Virus record (IMG/VR): IMGVR_UViG_3300012045_000001
Span: 1 to 60,024 of that record
DNA from: a virus
Lineage: Duplodnaviria > Caudoviricetes
Length of the DNA: 60,024 nucleotides
Direction: 5' to 3' (one strand)
Part shown: in pieces, positions 15,985-60,024 of the stretch
Layout: each line of letters starts with the position of its first letter
Numbering within the stretch: position 1 is the first letter of the stretch
Translations under genes and position numbers: made by a program
The notes under the pieces: generated by a model
Told to the model about the DNA's origin: nothing
The model's input: only the letters and a program-made list of their open reading frames with translations
Databases searched by the model: none

Positions 15985-16319
15985 GCCAGCCAGTTTGCCG
16001 CACTTGCCCCAGAAGCAGACACGGCCACTGGAATACGTTCGAGGCCAGTAATAGGCGTTACGGCCTCGACGTATATTTCAAACTCGGTATCACCCACAGG
16101 CATATCGGCCAAAGCAATCCCAGTAAATCGAATGTCCACGTAGTCTTCTCCGACATCCTTGGGCCGCGCCCACACCTTGAGCCTCGGGTCATTGCTGGCA
16201 CGAAGGTATCCTCCGACAACCGGAGTTGTCACGAGGATAGTTAAGACCTGAGAAGTCTCCCCTTCAACGAGGCCAGTGATAGGCCAGTAAGTTAGTTCGT
16301 CTCCGTTAGCATCTTTCAT
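15981..16319 (-). CDS. putative virion protein
   Basis: Beta-rich ORF at end of tail module. Confidence 0.55.
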   Translation of the reverse strand: MKDANGDELTYWPITGLVEGETSQVLTILVTTPVVGGYLRASNDPRLKVWARPKDVGEDYVDIRFTGIALADMPVGDTEFEIYVEAVTPITGLERIPVAVSASGASAANWLA

Positions 16320-39371: not shown

Positions 39372-39914
39372 CTACTTGGTGAGTGAAAACTTGGGCTTTC
39401 CACTACCCGCTTTACCTTTCGTCGCAGGAGTCTCGTAAGCCACGGAAGTCTTGCGTCCGCTTGGTTTAGGAGTAGGAGAGGCCACTTTCTTCGGGGCCAC
39501 TTTTGCCACTGTTTTGCCGTTGCCTGCAACTTTCTTAGCGGCATTTGCCAGAGCATTCGGCGCAACTGCTTTTTTCGCAACCGGAGCAACCGGACGAGTC
39601 GGCCGTGTTGGTTGCTTCGAGGCCACTGGGCGTGTCGGTCTGGTCGGTTTGACCGGAGCAGTGACCTTAGCTGGTGCGCGTCGAGCGGCGGACTGGGCCG
39701 GTCTTGACTGCGTGAATACCATTCCTCTCGCGGCCTCCGCTTCCCTGCCTCTGATAATTCGGCCTCCGGTCATCACCTTTCCGGTGACTTCAAACTCTAT
39801 CATATCGCCTTTCTTGCCCCCGAGCGCGTTAATTAGTCCCGAGGGAATCTTACCGCGCTTAGTGTTGCTTGCGCCTTCTTCGTTGATTGTAGCGTGGAAC
39901 TTTACTGTTGCCAT
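39372..39914 (-). CDS. AbrB-like DNA-binding protein with histone H1-like K/A/P tail
   Basis: GKIPSGLINALGGKKGDMIEFEV; own promoter and terminator. Confidence 0.65.
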   Translation of the reverse strand: MATVKFHATINEEGASNTKRGKIPSGLINALGGKKGDMIEFEVTGKVMTGGRIIRGREAEAARGMVFTQSRPAQSAARRAPAKVTAPVKPTRPTRPVASKQPTRPTRPVAPVAKKAVAPNALANAAKKVAGNGKTVAKVAPKKVASPTPKPSGRKTSVAYETPATKGKAGSGKPKFSLTK

Positions 39915-39973
39915 CTTGTTTTTACCTTCCTGTATATTTAGTATTGCGTCCCACTCCAAGGGCCGAGGATTAA

Positions 39974-51671: not shown

Positions 51672-51806
51672 TGATTTGTCTCCGGTTCTGGTTGGATTGA
51701 GTCTTTCCAAAAGGGGCCTGCTGATAAGAGCGGGAATGAACGACACCCGACTTAATAACAGGCCCTAAAGGAAAGAACCGTGTGGCCAAGGCCGCCACTT
51801 AAATTG

Positions 51807-51836
51807 ACCTTACCAGTAATCTACGGTTAATGTCAA
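51807..51836 (-). promoter_or_regulatory. promoter for lysis/fibre/terminase operon
   Basis: TTGACA-N18-TAAGGT. Confidence 0.65.
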
Positions 51837-51879
51837 GCAAATAAACGATAATGTCCCAGAAGTCCCCGATTATGTGGGC

Positions 51880-52410
51880 TTTTTCGTGTGTTCTCGCTTC
51901 CTGCGCGTGAGCCTGCGGGTGTGCCTGCTCGTGTATATGCGCGTGAGAGATACGGCCAATTTGTGTGATATGACCCTTTTATTGTGCGCTCGGACATTTA
52001 CAAAACGGCAAACTTTTGGAGATTGGAAAATTGGGGAGGTATCTGGAATTTGGCAGGCCAAACTTTTGGAGATTGGAAAATTGGGAATGTATCTTTAATT
52101 CGGTTACGTGGCCCCTGTCCCTTATCGCTTGCTCGGTTACATTCGGGCGCGTTCATACAGACGCACACGCACACATATACGCGCATAACACGCGCCTGTT
52201 CTAGTCTTCGCGCACGGGCGCACATACACACGCGCCCACTTCATTCAGTCGCCAGCCAAATGTGTGTGCCTGCGTATGCGCTTGCGTGTTCCTGTCTTCG
52301 CGTGTGCGCGTGTCGTATGCGCGTGTTCCTGTCTTCGCGCCCGTGTGCATACGCACGTCGCGCCCGTGCGTAAGAGTAGGATTACACGGGCGCACGTCGC
52401 ACACGCGCCC
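51880..52410. repeat. alternating purine-pyrimidine low-complexity tract with a 50 bp-period direct repeat
   Basis: (CA/CG/TG)n-rich; CAAACTTTTGGAGATTGGAAAATTGGG at 52009-52035 and 52059-52085. Confidence 0.8.
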
Positions 52411-52458
52411 GTTAAGAATGGATAGGCTGGGCTTTTGTCCCTTTGCTAAGTGGTTTAA

Positions 52459-52711
52459 TATCAACAGTTTAGCTATTATCACTTTCTTTGTTACAATCTT
52501 TGTCAGTCTAAAGCCCAATGAATACGGGCGTTTCAAGGCAGTTTGACAAAGTTTGTCAGTTCAAAGTGCCGTTTATTGTTACTTTTCGACGGTCAAGGCA
52601 AGGTTTGTGCCTCTCTAAAGTGTTGATTCTATTACACTTACAGGCGTTCCTTTAGTTTTACTCAATAAAACCGATGTAGCCAGTCATAAGTCTATTGTTT
52701 TCAACACTTTG
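52459..52711. promoter_or_regulatory. IHF-like sites and palindromic enhancer-like boxes
   Basis: WATCAAN4TTR at 52459-52471 (+) and 52616-52628 (-), near match 52699-52711; TGACAAAGTTTGTCA 52544-52558, variant 52491-52505. Confidence 0.55.
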
Positions 52712-52717
52712 CAACTG

Positions 52718-52733
52718 TGGCACGGCGACTGCA
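52718..52733 (+). promoter_or_regulatory. sigma54 (-24/-12) promoter
   Basis: TGGCACG-GCGA-CTGCA versus consensus TGGCACG-N4-TTGCW. Confidence 0.6.
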
Positions 52734-52744
52734 TTAGAACAAAC

Positions 52745-53660
52745 CGACAGCAACGGTGCTACTGGCTAACCCCGACACACAGCACGGTTGCGGACAACTT
52801 GTTAAACAGCAAACACAGTGGCGCGATAAGTTCTTTCGCGTATTCGGTAGATTAACGTCTGTGCGGAGGCTTAGAGTTGTCCCTAGCAAAGCGAAAAGAC
52901 ATACAAAGCACACGCATAACGCGGTTTAATTACCCCCTTGCGACTGGTCAACCCCGATATGTGCCTCTGTCCCTAGCGAAAATGCACAGATAGCAACGCG
53001 GTATCGAGTCCGCACGGCTGGAAGTGTGAGCATCTTTGGCGAAATTCAGGCTTAATTGCCCGTCTGCTCTAGGGACAAACGCGAGATGTAGATATTTGAC
53101 AACAAAAACACACACGCAACAAAGGCGCGGAGTGTATGCGAAACGGGACAACTATGCACGAAAGGTGTCCCACAGGAAAGCCGGAAAGCGGGCGTTGTGA
53201 AACGCCCAACAGTCAAGCACACAAAGGCGATTAGTGGGACATATCGGGAAAGGCGAAAGCGAAAGCACGACTGCAAGGGACGCATAACACAGGGACACGC
53301 GAACAGACGGCGGCGAGGGACAAGATACAAACGGCGGCAGTATGTCAGGGGACTAATCACAAGATTACTTGGGTGTGAAATATAAGCGGGTCAAGGGGAA
53401 CGTCTGAAACGGCAGTTATCCTAACAGGTGAGGCACAATAGCGTGAGCGTGTCCCTTTCCCGCAAAGCTAACGGGGTAACATCCCGCATAATGCGAATAA
53501 GCGCATTATAAACTTCCTTCCCGTGAAACGGAAGGGACATTTGAGCCTTTTGACTTTGTGGTAGTCCCAGTGAGCATCAAAAGGTTGAAATGTCCCTAAC
53601 CGGACATATACGCTTAGGCGTGAAATAACACTTGCCCCGCGTGTGGCTTAAAATACACGC
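52745..53660 (+). ncRNA. candidate large structured non-coding RNA or leader
   Basis: No credible ORF; many hairpins, GNRA loops and long-range helices. Confidence 0.5.
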
Positions 53661-53670
53661 TCTAAACACA

Positions 53671-54528
53671 ATGAAATCAACGAATAACAACGCAAAAATG
53701 ACCTTAACCGCAACCGAATTACAAGCAATTATCGCGTCCGCAGTAGCCAGCGCGTTATCACAATCGAGTGTCCCAGCCACGAGCGCGAAACTCGTGTCCC
53801 GTGTGCCTGTCGCCCCGATGGTGAAATCGCCCACGAAATCGCCCGTGAAATCAGTCCCGCAACCGACCGCAAGCGCAGAAGTTGACCCCAACGAAATCCG
53901 CATCGGCATCACGGCTGGGATGGTTGCCAACCGCTTGAAATTCCCGTCCCGTATCTTCGACCGCAACGGCGTAGCGTATGTGGACGGCGTGAAATACACC
54001 GCACAGCCGAATGACCAAAACCGTAGCACGAAAATTGGCGTTGGGACATACGGGCTGAAAGAGGGACAAACGCTTATCGTGTCCCGCGAAAATCCTCGCT
54101 CGAACAAGTGGGCGACGAAAGTGAGTGGCAAAGGCGTTGCAAGTGTCCCAGCCGTCGTCGCTCGTGTCGCTCCTGCGAAATCCGCGCCGAAAGTGTCCCT
54201 CACGCAAATTGCCGCTAAAATCGCTCCGAAAGCGGTCAAAGCCGCTCCGGTCAAAGCGGTAACGGAAAAAGAGGCGTATGTGCCTGTGTTCAACCGTGCG
54301 GACGCTATGAACATCAAGTCCCTGATTGCCGCAACAGCGAAACTCGCGCTGGCTGGTTACGGTGCGGGTGTTGAAAACACGAACTTGCTCCCAATCGAGG
54401 GACTTGAAGCTGACGCTCGTGTGTTCTTGTCCAGCCGTGAATCGTCGGCTTTCCGCTCGGCGCGTAAGAAACTGGGCGTGTCCCTTCGCAAAGCAGTCGA
54501 AATGCTGAATGATGAAGTGTATGGTTAG
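53671..54528 (+). CDS. first early-block protein: possible DNA-binding domain flanked by K/A/P/V-rich linkers
   Basis: Long ORF, terminator downstream; no clear SD. Confidence 0.7.
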   Translation: MKSTNNNAKMTLTATELQAIIASAVASALSQSSVPATSAKLVSRVPVAPMVKSPTKSPVKSVPQPTASAEVDPNEIRIGITAGMVANRLKFPSRIFDRNGVAYVDGVKYTAQPNDQNRSTKIGVGTYGLKEGQTLIVSRENPRSNKWATKVSGKGVASVPAVVARVAPAKSAPKVSLTQIAAKIAPKAVKAAPVKAVTEKEAYVPVFNRADAMNIKSLIAATAKLALAGYGAGVENTNLLPIEGLEADARVFLSSRESSAFRSARKKLGVSLRKAVEMLNDEVYG

Positions 54529-54564
54529 TATTACCGTAGTATGGTTAGTATTACCGTAGTATGG
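54519..54564. repeat. 20 bp tandem repeat (2.3 copies)
   Basis: GTATGGTTAGTATTACCGTA x2 plus GTATGG. Confidence 0.9.
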
Positions 54565-54594
54565 CTAATCGCAAGCGTAAGGCGTGTGTAATCT

Positions 54595-54625
54595 GGGACA
54601 GTGCCTTTGACTGTCCCTTTCTTTT
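54595..54625 (+). terminator. intrinsic terminator
   Basis: GGGACAGT/ACTGTCCC stem plus T tract. Confidence 0.7.
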
Positions 54626-54655
54626 GTGTCCCTAATCTGAAATGGAGTGTGCATA

Positions 54656-54981
54656 ATGAAAAAGCGAGTCAAACCAACGCTTAAAAGCGAAATGAGAGTT
54701 GTAACAAGTCCCAGCACGTTTGCATACGGACAAACGGCGAAATTCGGCAAGCCTGCGATGATCCTGCGATGATGGCAAGCGAACAAGCGAAACGTGATGA
54801 GGCGAAACGGGTGTCCCTGCTACGTGCATCGCAGTATGCGTATGAGCAGGAACAGCAAATTGCTAAAGAGATGGTTGGATATGACTGGGACAATGTTCAC
54901 GGCATACTTACACAGGCAAAAGGCACGATGTCCCTTGAGCGGGCTAAAGAACTCAGTTTGTTTATCAAAGGAGCGAAATAA
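54656..54981 (+). pseudogene. ORF split by an 11 bp tandem duplication
   Basis: CCTGCGATGAT x2 (54752-54773); removing one copy fuses MKKRVKP... with MMASEQ... Confidence 0.6.
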
Positions 54982-55169
54982 TGAAAGGACTACTCGTATT
55001 TGCAATAATCGTGGGACTGGCGTTCTGGGCTTTCGGCTCGTTCGCACAATCCGTAATCACAAACCAAACCGTCGTTCGTAACGCGAATGATGCGAAACTG
55101 TCCCAGTGCGTAAGCGCAGGGGCATCAACCGAAACCGAATGTCTGTTAGCACAATTAGGAGCGAAATAG
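54981..55169 (+). CDS. small secreted/membrane protein
   Basis: Signal-like N-terminus; RBS. Confidence 0.6.
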   Translation: MKGLLVFAIIVGLAFWAFGSFAQSVITNQTVVRNANDAKLSQCVSAGASTETECLLAQLGAK

Positions 55170-55413
55170 TATGTATAAACACGAAAAAGCGGGACTGATA
55201 GCGTTAATCGTAACGCTTATGTGGCTGGTGAGCCTGTTGGCTTGCTTTGCCCGATGAAACAATTCAGACACACCAATCGAGTGTCCCAGCAGGATAGGGA
55301 CACGAAACGTAATACGAAACAGGACAGACGAGCGCGAAGGCTCGTGATACAAGCACTGTCCCAGTATCGTCGGCAATTAACGAAACTAACACAGATAAAT
55401 GGAGGACAAACAA

Positions 55414-55692
55414 ATGATAGTAGTATGCACACGACGACCGCAGGTTGAAATCACAGATGCACCGGAACAAACTCACAGCAAACCGCGTAGCATCAAAGTC
55501 ATCAAAGCTGGGACACATAAAGCAGTCCCGACTCCCACGTTAGACGCGAAACCCAAGCGCATACCAGACAGCGAAATCCGTGAGTCTTGGGTCAAAGCCA
55601 AAAACGAATCGAAATCAAGTGCCTATCGGATAGCGATGGCTTTCTTCTTCGATGTCCCAGATGTATCAATGCAGACAATAGGAGCGAAATAA
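55414..55692 (+). CDS. hypothetical protein
   Basis: GGAGG RBS. Confidence 0.6.
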   Translation: MIVVCTRRPQVEITDAPEQTHSKPRSIKVIKAGTHKAVPTPTLDAKPKRIPDSEIRESWVKAKNESKSSAYRIAMAFFFDVPDVSMQTIGAK

Positions 55693-56228
55693 TGAACGAA
55701 CAAACAACAAATTCAATGTGCGTATCGTGTGAGACGATATTTAACAAGTCCGGCGCGAGATGCGGGACACAATGCCCAGTGTGTCGTGGGACAGTGCGGG
55801 AAGTTTTAACCGGAGTGATTGATAATAACTCAGTCCCGCACATCTGGGACGAACTCGGAAGCGGGAACGAAATCAATCTGGACTACGAGAACGCGCTTCG
55901 AGAACACAAACTCGAATGCGGCGAAGACGAGTCGTGCGCCGAGCGTGGACACGAGGACTGGAATGACGAGTATGAGTCCCAATCGGATACGATGCTGATT
56001 GGGGACTGGGCTAAGGACTCGGACGGTGATTATGTCCCAATCGTGAATGGGGACAAAGGGTATGCCGCGATAGTCCGCGAGTCGGTGTCCCAAGTGGTCT
56101 GGTCAAGAGCGATTGCGAAACGGAAATCAATGTGTAGTCCCTGCTATCCGATGCAAGCGGACTTGGACTCTGGGGATGGGACAATACCGTGCTATGCCTT
56201 CCCAGCCGATATGATGGAGGAAAACTAA
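55692..56228 (+). CDS. Cys-rich acidic hypothetical protein
   Basis: CxxC pairs; TAATG coupling. Confidence 0.65.
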   Translation: MNEQTTNSMCVSCETIFNKSGARCGTQCPVCRGTVREVLTGVIDNNSVPHIWDELGSGNEINLDYENALREHKLECGEDESCAERGHEDWNDEYESQSDTMLIGDWAKDSDGDYVPIVNGDKGYAAIVRESVSQVVWSRAIAKRKSMCSPCYPMQADLDSGDGTIPCYAFPADMMEEN

Positions 56229-56554
56229 TGAATCACGAAACTTACAGGGACTCAAGTAGAGGCGTATTCGAGCGGGTCAGCAAGCCGATTGCGAGACGTG
56301 CTTATAAGGAGGGACAGTCAATCTGGCTTGTCCCTTCGCACGTTGCTTTCAGCTTTAGCAATCAGTGGGTTGTCCCGTGCGAAATAAGCACGGCAAACGA
56401 CACGAACGACTCGACGGACTTTGACCGGACTGTGAACAACTACGAGTATTACAACTGTTGTTCGGAGTTAGGGACATACACGAGGTTTTTCATAGTGAGA
56501 CCGAAGGAGAGGAACGACCCGAAGGAGGGACAATTAAATGAAATACATAGTTGA
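56228..56554 (+). CDS. hypothetical protein
   Basis: GGAGG RBS; YEYYNC..ELG.Y. Confidence 0.65.
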   Translation: MNHETYRDSSRGVFERVSKPIARRAYKEGQSIWLVPSHVAFSFSNQWVVPCEISTANDTNDSTDFDRTVNNYEYYNCCSELGTYTRFFIVRPKERNDPKEGQLNEIHS

Positions 56555-56699
56555 AATCGAAGTGGACACTGACGCGCTCAGAGAGGCGCGGGGGGACACT
56601 GACGACGATAGCGTAATCGAAGCACTCGAAGCGGAGTTCGGCTGGCTTGCAGAATCCGGCATAACCGTTGTTTCGATTGACGAAAAGCACGATGTTTAA
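56538..56699 (+). CDS. small acidic protein (53 aa)
   Basis: AAGGAGG RBS; MKYIVEIEVD...; not in ORF track. Confidence 0.6.
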   Translation: MKYIVEIEVDTDALREARGDTDDDSVIEALEAEFGWLAESGITVVSIDEKHDV

Positions 56700-56766
56700 T
56701 GGCGAGTTGCAAAATGGCAACCAATGAGTTATAATGAGAAAACCAATCAGCTAAGGAGACAAACAA

Positions 56767-57366
56767 ATGAACAGTGAAACATACGACCGAGTGGGACACG
56801 CAATCACGCAGTCCCTTATACAGAGCGAGGACTTAACCAACATCATCGAATCCGATATGGCATCCGACGACGGGGACATCGCCTTCGGAATGGAAAACGA
56901 AGCGTTCGCGCTTATGGAAACCCTGTTTGCCAAGTTCGGCGCGGACTTAGGCGAGGACGGACTTCGAGAGTCGAATGTCCCAGAGCATAAGGCACTGACC
57001 GTGCTTATCGAATCTATGGGCATACCGGAAACATATCAGTTGTGCGAAGCAATCACGTATGTCCTGCTTGACCCAGAGCCAATGGATATACCGAGTGGGA
57101 CAGAGGGCGAAACATACTTCGACGGGACAGGGACGATATTCAAGTCCCTTGATGCTGACGGATGCGCTTCGTTTCGCAAGTGGGCGAGAGACAATTACAT
57201 CATCGGGGACGCATACCCGAAAGACATCTGGCATCCGGTTACGGTTAGCGAAATCGAAAAGATGAACTTTGAAGCGTTTGGCGAGGACGGGGACACCGTG
57301 AAAGCGGACGCGGATAATTACAACACCGAAGACGACAACGGGGACTGGACTCCAGTAAAGAGTTAG
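56767..57366 (+). CDS. acidic hypothetical protein
   Basis: TAAGGAG RBS. Confidence 0.7.
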   Translation: MNSETYDRVGHAITQSLIQSEDLTNIIESDMASDDGDIAFGMENEAFALMETLFAKFGADLGEDGLRESNVPEHKALTVLIESMGIPETYQLCEAITYVLLDPEPMDIPSGTEGETYFDGTGTIFKSLDADGCASFRKWARDNYIIGDAYPKDIWHPVTVSEIEKMNFEAFGEDGDTVKADADNYNTEDDNGDWTPVKS

Positions 57367-57499
57367 ACTGAGGATTGAGGGCGTAAGGGACACTATGAAC
57401 CTTGCGCCTTCATTCGTTTGTCTAAACGCAAACGGTTAGAATAAATCAGTCCCAAGTGCGGCTGGGACTTAATTGCCGCACATACAAGGACATACAATT

Positions 57500-58552
57500 A
57501 TGGCAACGAAGAAATTAAACGACGACCAGAAACGCGACCTCATCATTGACACGCTTGGTGAACTGGGACAAATGAGTCCGCAGGATTTGATGAGCCGCAC
57601 AGGGACAAAGGGAGCGGACATCAAACACATCGTCAAGGAACTCAAAGACGATGGGACAATGGTTATCAGTGGGAATTCGTGCAGGCTATCGGATGAAGCG
57701 CAAGCCGAATACGATAACGCGAAAGTTCCGGCTGTCCCAGTCAAAGTCAAAGCAAAACCGAAAGCCGCTCCAGTTGCGGCAGTTGCGACTGCGCCAGCTA
57801 AACCGTCAAAGCCGACGAAGGTTGTCCCAGTTGTCGAAGAAGACATACCGGAACTCGAATACGAACTCGAAGACGATGGGACAGGCGAACCGGAAGAAGA
57901 CGTGGACGAAATGATAAACGAATACAACGCGCTTCAAGCCAAGTCCCGCAAGAACAAAACCGAACAGGCGCGATACCAAACACTCGAAGAACGGCTTGAC
58001 GAGTTAGGCGTGTTTGACCCAGAGGAGGATGCAGATGGGAGCAGTAGCGTGGATGAAATGGAGGATGGGACAGGAACAGAGGGACTTGGAGAAGGCGACC
58101 TTGAAGGCTTCGATGATGAAACTGAGAGCGGAGGCGAAGGCGAAGATAGTCCCGAAGGCGACGAAGACCCCGACGCATTTGAAGACGACCACGATGACGA
58201 CTTCTCCGACGACCACGATTCAGACGAAGACGAAGACCCAGTGGAGGAGGAAGCTGTCCCAGCCAGACCGACTAAGGCGCAAGCTAAAGGGACTGCGAAA
58301 CCGAGTGCTGGAAAACCGAGTCCCAAAACGGCGAAAGTTGCCGGAGCAGGAAGTCGAGTAACCGACCCGCAAGCGGCGTTCTCAATGTCGTTCAAGCCGA
58401 TTGACACGCTGACCGATGACGAACTCGAAACCCGCATCGAATCCGCGACCGAAGCGGCTGAGATGTTATCGGGACAGGGACACGAGGACGTTGCCGAAAT
58501 GCTGATGCGCTCCGTAGCCAAAGCAAGAAAGCAACTAAACAAACGCTCATAG
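57500..58552 (+). CDS. winged-helix protein with long acidic region
   Basis: IIDTLGELGQMSPQDLMSRTG...IVKELKDDG wHTH pattern; D/E-rich middle. Confidence 0.7.
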   Translation: MATKKLNDDQKRDLIIDTLGELGQMSPQDLMSRTGTKGADIKHIVKELKDDGTMVISGNSCRLSDEAQAEYDNAKVPAVPVKVKAKPKAAPVAAVATAPAKPSKPTKVVPVVEEDIPELEYELEDDGTGEPEEDVDEMINEYNALQAKSRKNKTEQARYQTLEERLDELGVFDPEEDADGSSSVDEMEDGTGTEGLGEGDLEGFDDETESGGEGEDSPEGDEDPDAFEDDHDDDFSDDHDSDEDEDPVEEEAVPARPTKAQAKGTAKPSAGKPSPKTAKVAGAGSRVTDPQAAFSMSFKPIDTLTDDELETRIESATEAAEMLSGQGHEDVAEMLMRSVAKARKQLNKRS

Positions 58553-58565
58553 CCGAGCAAGGACT

Positions 58566-58601
58566 GGGACAGCCGCACATCATACTGCGGCTGTCCCTTT
58601 T
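58566..58601 (+). terminator. intrinsic terminator
   Basis: GGGACAGCCGCA/TGCGGCTGTCCC 12 bp stem plus TTTT. Confidence 0.75.
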
Positions 58602-58617
58602 ACATAGGAGAAACAAA

Positions 58618-58788
58618 ATGACAGCATACGTTATAGTGGGACAGGATTACGGGACACAGGAAACAAACTGCTTCGGTGTATTCAGCGACCGAGAGAAAGC
58701 TGACATTGCACTGGGACATCTTAAAGACGATGAAACGGGCGTTGACTTGCAGATTATTGAGATGACGGTCAACGAGGAAGTAATTTAA
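58618..58788 (+). CDS. small hypothetical protein (56 aa)
   Basis: AGGAG RBS; FGVFSDREKA; not in ORF track. Confidence 0.6.
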   Translation: MTAYVIVGQDYGTQETNCFGVFSDREKADIALGHLKDDETGVDLQIIEMTVNEEVI

Positions 58789-58809
58789 CACTGGAGGGAC
58801 ACAAAGCAA

Positions 58810-59421
58810 ATGGACATCAACGATTACAGAGAGGCACTGAAAACCAACAACTACAACTACAATCGCAACAAGGATGTGTCAATCCTATTCCGGCGCAAAG
58901 TCGAGAAATGGATTAACGAGAAAACTGGGGACAAGGTTTATTTACTCTTTGCCCCTAACGGCAAAACAATAATGACACGGGAAATCGGACTCACCGATTT
59001 AGTCCCAGACGTTGTTGTAACGTCCAACAATTCGACGTGGGCGATGGATGATGTCAAGGGCGCGGCGATGGAGCGCGGAATAAAGATGAGCGACGAACAA
59101 GCCCAACACTTACTCGAAGACAATGCCAAAGGCATCGGGACTTATGGCTGGGACGGCATCTCGAACGTGCTTGATGACGTGAGGACTTGTGATGAGTGTA
59201 GCCGTGCGGTTGACGTGATACCGGACACTGAAACGGACAACGGCTCGTATGAGTTGCTGGACGGACTGCACATCTGCGAGGACTGCAAAATCAAAGGCGA
59301 CTATGTTGCCTGTATTGAATGTGAGGCGTATCACCCGAAGGGACTGATGAAGCACGTCGGAGGAATTGCACCAGACCAACAGGACTATGTATGTCCGAGT
59401 TGTGAAAAGGAGGAAAACTAA
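58810..59421 (+). CDS. Zn-finger hypothetical protein
   Basis: Four CxxC pairs. Confidence 0.65.
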   Translation: MDINDYREALKTNNYNYNRNKDVSILFRRKVEKWINEKTGDKVYLLFAPNGKTIMTREIGLTDLVPDVVVTSNNSTWAMDDVKGAAMERGIKMSDEQAQHLLEDNAKGIGTYGWDGISNVLDDVRTCDECSRAVDVIPDTETDNGSYELLDGLHICEDCKIKGDYVACIECEAYHPKGLMKHVGGIAPDQQDYVCPSCEKEEN

Positions 59422-59639
59422 TGAGCATCGAAATACAAAGTAAGGACGTGGGACTGGACATTGATGATGTAACCGCAGACCGGAAGGACTACAACTCGCC
59501 GGACTGGGACACGGTTACTTCTGGGGACACTGCGGAGGACGCTCTGCGCTCTCTCGTGTCTATGCTTAACTCGGAAGAAATTGACGACGTGAATCTGTAT
59601 TATCGCGCAGTAGATACGACAAGGGAGATTGTTTTATGA
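59421..59639 (+). CDS. acidic hypothetical protein
   Basis: AGGAGG RBS. Confidence 0.6.
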   Translation: MSIEIQSKDVGLDIDDVTADRKDYNSPDWDTVTSGDTAEDALRSLVSMLNSEEIDDVNLYYRAVDTTREIVL

Positions 59640-59778
59640 CGGTATTTCTCGTGTTAATTATATTCGCCTGTCTGATAGGCTGGGCAAAGGAAAACCTCTG
59701 GTCAGAAAACGACACGCAAAACTTCGCGCAAGCCGCGAGGCACGGGACTAGAATGAGAAAATAGGAGGACTTGGGACT

Positions 59779-60024
59779 ATGACACCAGATAATTTGAATG
59801 AGTTCCAACGGGGCTATGTAGAATGTGCCTTGTGGACTAGCAACGAATACAGCAAGGACGCGGACGGCTTGGACTGTCCCCACAACTTCTTAGACCAGAA
59901 CTACGGAGTCAAGGACATTGACAGTGGGACAATCAAGCAAATGATTAAGGACTGCAATCAGTTCTATCAGGACAACGCGCAAGACATCATACGAGTTTGC
60001 GACAGCAAAGCAAACACATACAAC
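59779..60024 (+). CDS. hypothetical protein (3' truncated)
   Basis: AGGAGG RBS; MTPDNLNEFQRGYVECALWTS..., open to window end. Confidence 0.6.
   Translation, partial: MTPDNLNEFQRGYVECALWTSNEYSKDADGLDCPHNFLDQNYGVKDIDSGTIKQMIKDCNQFYQDNAQDIIRVCDSKANTYN

Follow-up and report, generated by a model that had tools for sequence, protein, structure and literature searches.

In phage T7, gene 0.3 is preceded by a non-coding left end with host promoters and an RNase III site. HK022 put and Bacillus EAR are cis-acting leader RNAs that let polymerase pass terminators, and GOLLD and ROOL are RNAs that occur in phages. According to the accessible part of one source (PMC8954989), the entering T7 genome is believed to be clamped at about 850 bp. 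For phage T5, the accessible portion of one report describes insensitivity to restriction while sites are absent from the first-entering 8% (PMC10644984), and that of a second describes long first-step-transfer (FST) untranslated regions that are rich in repeats and palindromes and more strongly conserved than the ORFs next to them (10.1101/866236).

Here, we analyzed positions 52745-53660 of a phage genome. The window, i.e., the whole stretch of DNA under analysis, is a complete IMG/VR record of 60024 nt of the linear class, without an end repeat and with a CheckV completeness of 100%. The minus-strand genes begin with the endolysin at 51746 and reach down to 16316; those of the plus strand run from 53671 to the record end and then from 1 to about 15984. 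In family searches, a terminase large subunit, a Mu-type portal and an S49 protease were recognized among the minus-strand genes. The plus-strand genes include a family A DNA polymerase and a DnaB helicase. Between the two gene blocks lies a gene-free gap of 1.9 kb (51747-53670), and the studied stretch is its right half.

The closest terminase among GenBank phages is only 36-38% identical, and a blastn search with 51700-53700 against GenBank phages returned no match. No relatives emerged from IMG/VR when the endolysin, the terminase or the first early protein served as query, and both metagenome scans for relatives were empty. Two IMG/VR contigs (L002 and L003) matched an 18-nt hairpin pattern, had nothing else in common with the window and were rejected as chance. 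No internal paralogue of 52111-53670 was found in the rest of the window at E<=0.05, and a tRNA and tmRNA search yielded none. The sole cellular match of any phage protein, at 31% identity in a Blastocatellia MAG, is uninformative on the host.

Like the left end of T7, the locus offers about 0.9 kb of gene-free DNA before the early genes, with a promoter close to the beginning and, not far upstream of the first early gene, a long imperfect hairpin. Unlike in T7, no T7-like RNA polymerase or podovirus genes are seen in this phage, and the promoter looks like one of the -24/-12 type, unlike strong sigma-70 promoters. The likeness to the untranslated repeat regions of T5, to which the proposed injection stop signal belongs, lies, as far as the accessible parts of the T5 reports go, in more than 1 kb of gene-free DNA bordering a block of orphan pre-early genes, in many inverted and direct repeats with conservation above that of neighbouring ORFs, and in a block that lacks restriction sites found elsewhere in the genome. 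This phage is, however, unrelated to T5 and has a genome of 60 kb recorded without an end repeat. The paired DnaA boxes of T5 have no counterpart, since none of the eight near-consensus sites (TTATCCACA, at most one mismatch) falls within 51747-53670, and strand skew and promoter suggest that the region is transcribed here. With GOLLD and ROOL, the stretch shares a length of several hundred nt, a non-coding nature and a location in a phage, judged from the available part of their description (10.1101/2024.12.08.627333); it differs in having no Rfam match, no evidence for a global fold and no discrete 3' end. As in HK022 put and Bacillus EAR, conserved hairpins stand between an early promoter and the terminators at 54595-54617 and 58566-58597, but there is no match to these elements in sequence or model, and the elements here are larger and more numerous.

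Our preferred reading, tentative at a probability of about 0.45, is that the stretch forms the untranslated head of a rightward early unit and that its hairpins would act in cis on the message. The features discussed below are collected in Table 1.

Table 1 Features of the stretch and of the early domain that it heads (coordinates in the window).
Feature	Position	Strand	Remarks
Compositional early domain headed by the stretch	52111-60024		GGCC-free, GGGAC-dense
Conserved promoter island	52702-52753	+	-24/-12-like element at 52718-52733; implied start near 52745
Variable 5' leader segment	52754-52925	+	Not structured beyond chance
Conserved leader core	52926-53670	+	A-rich, T-poor; T 8-10% in 53100-53299
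Long-range inverted repeat at GTCCC/GGGAC	52963-53082	+	14-nt arms, 86% complementary
Element A	53159-53246	+	Closing helix 53165-53173 with 53234-53242
Element A, inner hairpin	53190-53207	+	7 bp, GTGA (GNRA) loop
Element B	53449-53540	+	Closing helix 53449-53457 with 53532-53540
Element B, enclosed hairpins	53472-53486, 53488-53509, 53521-53531	+	
Element C	53529-53602	+	Long hairpin, 21-nt arms, 90% complementary; no T run after it
Three small hairpins	53590-53607, 53609-53622, 53639-53660	+	Just upstream of the first early gene
First early gene, P0002, 285 aa	53671-54528	+	Orphan; K/A/P-rich low-complexity linkers
First plus-strand intrinsic terminator after the promoter	54595-54617	+	Stem GGGACAG/CTGTCCC, T run; z -3.91
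Second terminator	58566-58597	+	Same build; z -6.10

Conservation and probable direction of transcription

Seven runs, all of them DNA, are listed as carrying the stretch or part of it; one is probably the source of the record, and contigs of four others, the metagenome runs X2-X5, were aligned as relatives over 51700-54600. With contigs that are short and of low depth, alignment of only those pieces that are at least 80% alike, all but 4 of the pieces listed, and 40 of the 189 substitutions and 12 of the 44 indels listed, the leader core (52980-53812) differs by about 1-6% in the relatives, as against 6-13% in neighbouring coding DNA. In X2, the piece 52980-53812 shows 10 differences and 5 gaps in 833 nt (1.2%), compared with 32 differences and 12 gaps in 540 nt (5.9%) for the coding piece 53785-54324, and the upstream piece 51702-52067 shows 35 differences and 6 gaps in 366 nt. 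The X4 leader differs by 6.1% (52716-53024), 4.6% (52997-53276) and 6.1% (53372-53745), its coding pieces by 12.6% (53924-54114) and 7.7% (54367-54509), and its upstream pieces by 14% and 11.5%. Something functional thus appears to be present in the stretch.

The sequence-only reading had placed the beginning of the stretch where transcription from a sigma54 promoter would start, and a promoter-like island does lie there and is kept in the relatives. Its -24/-12-like element has one mismatch to TGGCAC-N5-TTGCW (GG-N10-GC). The island is found in X2 at 52702-52753 with one difference and in X3 at 52627-52753 with two, and X4 shows no difference among those listed in 52716-52767. The flanks behave otherwise. 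The 74 nt before the island (52642-52715) have diverged past alignment in X4, and the sequence after 52753 is replaced in X2, which has 101 other letters for the 172 of the variable segment, and in X3, which is unlike the window from there on; X4 carries the window's version. A kept island with swapped flanks resembles a promoter footprint of about -45 to +10, which would be followed by a spacer and a constrained core.

The direction of transcription can be judged from base composition. The cumulative A-minus-T curve has its minimum at 52659 and its other turning point at 16290. Because gene orientation also changes at 16290, the skew tracks the sense strand in this genome, and the minimum at 52659 therefore makes the plus strand sense-like in composition from about 52.7 kb on. 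A search for intrinsic terminator-like sites on the plus strand of 52745-53670 found none, so that an RNA started at the island would be the 5' leader of the first early gene. Taking the skew, the missing early terminator and the promoter island together, a rightward transcript from near 52745 into the first gene is the most economical reading.

Several observations stand as counterpoints to the leader reading. An enhancer-binding activator (PF00158) was sought among the phage proteins and none was found, and matches to the -24/-12 consensus with one mismatch occur three times in the window, the island site being one of them. Furthermore, a weak sigma-70-like site at 53625-53654 is an alternative candidate for driving the first early gene. 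Further downstream, a near-consensus sigma-70-type promoter (TTGCAA, 17 nt, TATAAT) lies at 56707-56735, 30 nt before the gene at 56767, whereas the site preceding the first early gene is -24/-12-like.

With the two terminators, which are its best ones on the plus strand, the early domain would be cut into several transcription units, or read-through would be needed. A third intergenic hairpin of the GGGAC(A)G/C(T)GTCCC type is found in the domain at 57448-57469.

The first early gene has no Shine-Dalgarno site, which leaves translation control by the leader possible. The only homologue of its product, P0003, is 92-94% identical to P0002 and is encoded on an ENA contig of 3550 nt. P0003 starts at residue 10 of P0002, is identical to it over residues 73-230 and differs in the linker of residues 47-72. 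The true start of the gene may thus be the ATG at 53698, which would lengthen the leader from about 0.93 kb to 0.95 kb. P0002 matched no Pfam or PHROG family, gave no tblastn match and is not similar to the other K/A/P-rich protein, encoded at 39372-39959. An AbrB/MazE-like structural match was weak and came from a poor Atlas model (pLDDT 0.41); it means little.

In the leader reading, transcription would start at the conserved island near 52745, and the transcript would cross about 0.93 kb free of genes and terminators, enter the first early gene and end at 54595-54617. The first ~180 nt of the leader would serve as a swappable, unstructured spacer. The next ~700 nt would be the nucleotide-conserved part, with four stable hairpin elements, two of them mutually exclusive, in the final 500 nt. 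These hairpins may act in cis in processing, in stability of the message, in read-through of the downstream terminators or in translation of the gene that lacks a ribosome-binding site.

The early domain headed by the stretch

The stretch belongs to a domain of 7.9 kb that is set off from the other 52 kb of the window by its composition. GGCC occurs 0 times in the domain and 644 times elsewhere, where it reaches about three times expectation. The corresponding counts are 0 and 62 for CCWGG, 0 and 72 for GTSAC, 0 and 34 for CYCGRG, 0 and 36 for CCWWGG, and 0 and 57 for AGGTA/TACCT. All genes of the domain are orphans. Its left edge is the last GGCC, at 52110 and 635 nt upstream of the stretch. 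Its right edge is the record junction, behind which ACCTA, CCTAC, AGGTA and GGCC follow at 1, 2, 27 and 81. Across this junction (60024|1), a 3'-open frame (59779-60024) is in phase with a 5'-open frame (1-228). The last and the first 9 nt of the record agree in all but one position (8 of 9), and this mismatch creates CCTAC; the junction may reflect the boundary of a repeat, a strain bubble or a short assembly gap.

The region around the left edge has features of its own. The part 51880-52420, with the last GGCC at its start, is rich in alternating purine-pyrimidine runs and contains many short direct and inverted repeats, a 50-nt tandem duplication occupies 52009-52103, and the folding windows that start at 52200 and 52300 reach z -3.0 and -5.0.

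In the genome as a whole, GATC has 3 sites, CCSGG and RCCGGY have 2 each, and CATG, GTAC, GGWCC, GCWGC, ATGCAT, CTGCAG and CGATCG have 0; CAGCGG/CCGCTG occurs once against 31 expected. Since many restriction-type palindromes are nearly or wholly absent genome-wide, the host evidently carries many restriction systems. By analogy with T5, the composition of the domain suggests a first-entering block that would be exposed to restriction. A literature search found nothing on restriction-site avoidance confined to a first-entering early region.

While restriction-type words are purged from the domain, GGGAC is abundant. The window contains 291 copies on both strands against 119 expected, and 109 of these fall in the last 7.9 kb. 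Within the domain, the enrichment extends to both strands and to every reading frame.

These features allow a reading at the level of DNA, in which the conserved inverted repeats and GGGAC words, bound by a protein of the phage or of the host, would control DNA entry, packaging or handling of the early domain. The stretch stands at one border of the purged domain, and it is repeat-rich and better conserved than the neighbouring ORFs, as are the T5 untranslated regions in the accessible part of their description. Moreover, the hairpins are nearly equal on the two strands (see below), so that the inverted repeats would be able to act as DNA, and the enrichment of GGGAC irrespective of strand and frame fits a signal in DNA. 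The absence of DnaA boxes from the gap speaks against this reading, and both the skew and the kept promoter island suggest transcription across the stretch. We consider a DNA-level signal region somewhat unlikely as the explanation of the stretch; it can, however, coexist with an RNA leader.

Folding, the GGGAC motif and coding potential

All nine arm pairs and hairpins named by the sequence-only reading can be read in the sequence, at 53190-53207 (GTGA loop), 53166/53234, 52968 and 52878/53069, 53450/53530, 53488-53509, 53546/53584 and 53590-53607. The accompanying claim of dense structure over the whole ~0.9 kb did not survive comparison with shuffled sequence. Against 60 dinucleotide shuffles of the full 916 nt, the minimum free energy of the plus strand gave z -1.84, with 1 of 60 shuffles as stable, and that of the minus strand z -2.18, with 3 of 60 as stable; a separate estimate from 20 shuffles gave -1.95 and -2.09, respectively. 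When the 14 GGGAC/GTCCC sites were held fixed, z fell to -1.44 and 5 of 60 shuffles folded equally well. The global stability of the stretch is within chance once the motifs are kept.

Local folding is uneven. Three of the nine 200-nt windows starting in 52700-53500 reach z <= -2.9, namely those at 53100 (-2.9), 53400 (-3.9) and 53500 (-3.9), and the remaining six lie between -0.8 and +1.2. Among 65 sense-strand windows taken as genome background, with a mean z of -0.82, three are at or below -2.9. Hairpins above chance are confined to the 3' part, 53159-53660 (z -3 to -6.1), while the first 350 nt and 53200-53500 stay at the level of shuffled sequence. Folded alone, 52745-52890 gives z -0.53. 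The long-range inverted repeat is likewise at chance as a fold (52945-53090, z -0.29).

The four elements of the 3' part differ in strength. Element A folds at -33.9 kcal/mol with z -3.72, a stability that none of 200 shuffles reached (minus strand z -3.16), and element B reaches z -3.00, with 1 of 200 shuffles as stable (minus strand z -1.59). Element C is the strongest, with -37.5 kcal/mol and z -6.10 (0 of 200 shuffles as stable), and it retains -32.2 kcal/mol and z -5.12 on the minus strand. Elements B and C share 53529-53540 and are therefore mutually exclusive. The segment 53585-53670 with the three small hairpins gives z -3.01 (minus strand z -2.12). In z, the plus strand is the stronger one for all four elements, and in energy it is the lower one for three of four; folding of the plus strand is thus favoured, but mildly.

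The motif accounts for some of this pairing. Of the 14 GGGAC/GTCCC sites in the stretch, 12 lie inside the core. The earlier reading held that helices are built on GGGAC/GUCCC, and for several of them this is borne out: motif pairs in opposite orientation at most 150 nt apart extend to at least 8 bp of perfect pairing in 4 of 12 cases in the stretch, compared with 9 of 85 in the remainder of the early domain and 4 of 47 elsewhere. Motif density alone supplies part of the pairing, and the stretch adds a modest excess. The GAAA and GCGA loops named in that reading are mostly explained by the word usage of the early domain as a whole, where GCGAAA/TTTCGC occurs 29 times in 7.9 kb versus 23 times in the other 52 kb. 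On the plus strand, eight (A)GGGAC words lie in 53072-53538, four of them in tandem in 53277-53353.

These words and the terminator stems lead to a more far-reaching proposal, which we regard as distinctly unlikely, i.e., that the core (~52930-53670) works as an independent functional RNA of a new class, either a cis-acting element for polymerase read-through or a U-poor RNA that titrates a factor. In the first variant, host polymerase would be made to pass the GGGACAG/CTGTCCC terminators of the early domain. In the second, the repeated (A)GGGAC words would bind off a factor that recognises this word across the domain.

The idea that the stretch is a discrete, large and highly structured RNA, comparable to GOLLD and ROOL and founding a class of its own, was the main proposal of the earlier reading. 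About 700 nt of non-coding sequence are under nucleotide-level constraint, the GNRA-capped hairpin and nested helices are real, and helix 52968/53069 may show a compensatory exchange. There, the T that follows the 5' GTCCC core in the window is A in X5, and the A that precedes the 3' GGGAC core is T, a possible T-A to A-T exchange that is anecdotal, being read from the loose ends of two separate X5 contigs in which the outer two pairs are lost. Against this proposal, the global z of -1.4 to -2.2 comes without strand preference, the 5' 350 nt and 53200-53500 fold at shuffle level, the 5' segment is replaced in relatives, the T content of 8-10% in the central part limits pairing, and no terminator or other 3' end is found. 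The Rfam scan came out empty for the stretch: the whole window gave 0 matches at the gathering score, and at E<=10 there were 0 inside 52745-53660, with six chance-level matches all in 51713-52412. With no Rfam match, a 5' third that is unstructured and swapped, and no terminator, a new RNA class is not supported on present evidence. The stretch is most likely not a discrete, globally folded giant RNA, and we rate this proposal as highly unlikely.

Equally low in our estimate is the view that the stretch is functionless spacer or consists of decayed genes, its hairpins being by-products of the GGGAC/GTCCC excess of the domain. Elsewhere in the domain, motif pairs by themselves do yield helices of at least 8 bp, and fixing the motifs accounts for the global stability. 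However, relatives differ less in the leader core than in the gene beside it, the 21-nt arms of element C go far beyond a motif of 5-6 nt, and windows at z <= -2.9 are more frequent in the leader (3 of 9) than in the background (3 of 65).

The view that no credible ORF spans the ~900 nt is upheld by ORF sizes, Shine-Dalgarno sites, a gene-call look-up and an indel in relatives. The longest ORFs in the stretch have 62 aa (plus strand) and 102 aa (minus strand). All nine ORFs looked up in a collection of 15 billion proteins were not called as genes there, and no homologue of the 102-aa minus-strand ORF was found. Strong Shine-Dalgarno sites mark most genes of the phage; in the stretch, they lead a single 38-aa TTG frame, and at least four single-base indels cross this frame in X4. 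In addition, a 2-nt deletion at 53174, present in all three covering runs (X2, X4 and X5), breaks every frame there. Despite ORFs of 38-102 aa and minus-strand consensus matches that are promoter-like at 53408-53379 and terminator-like at 53129-53113, hidden small protein genes, or a minus-strand small RNA running between these two sites, are the least probable explanation and barely credible given these indels, the lack of called genes and homologues, and promoter and terminator matches at chance frequency (2 versus 2.4 expected; 6 versus 3.7).

Meaning for annotation and genome entry

Taken alone, the stretch is another long conserved leader or control region before phage early genes, which is useful for annotation. 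More striking is its context, a sharply bounded 7.9-kb block that is purged of at least six restriction-type words and dense in one 5-mer on both strands. If this domain enters first, it would represent a T5-like entry strategy in an unrelated, uncultured siphovirus-like phage, and the leader would be the place to seek the signals of that strategy.
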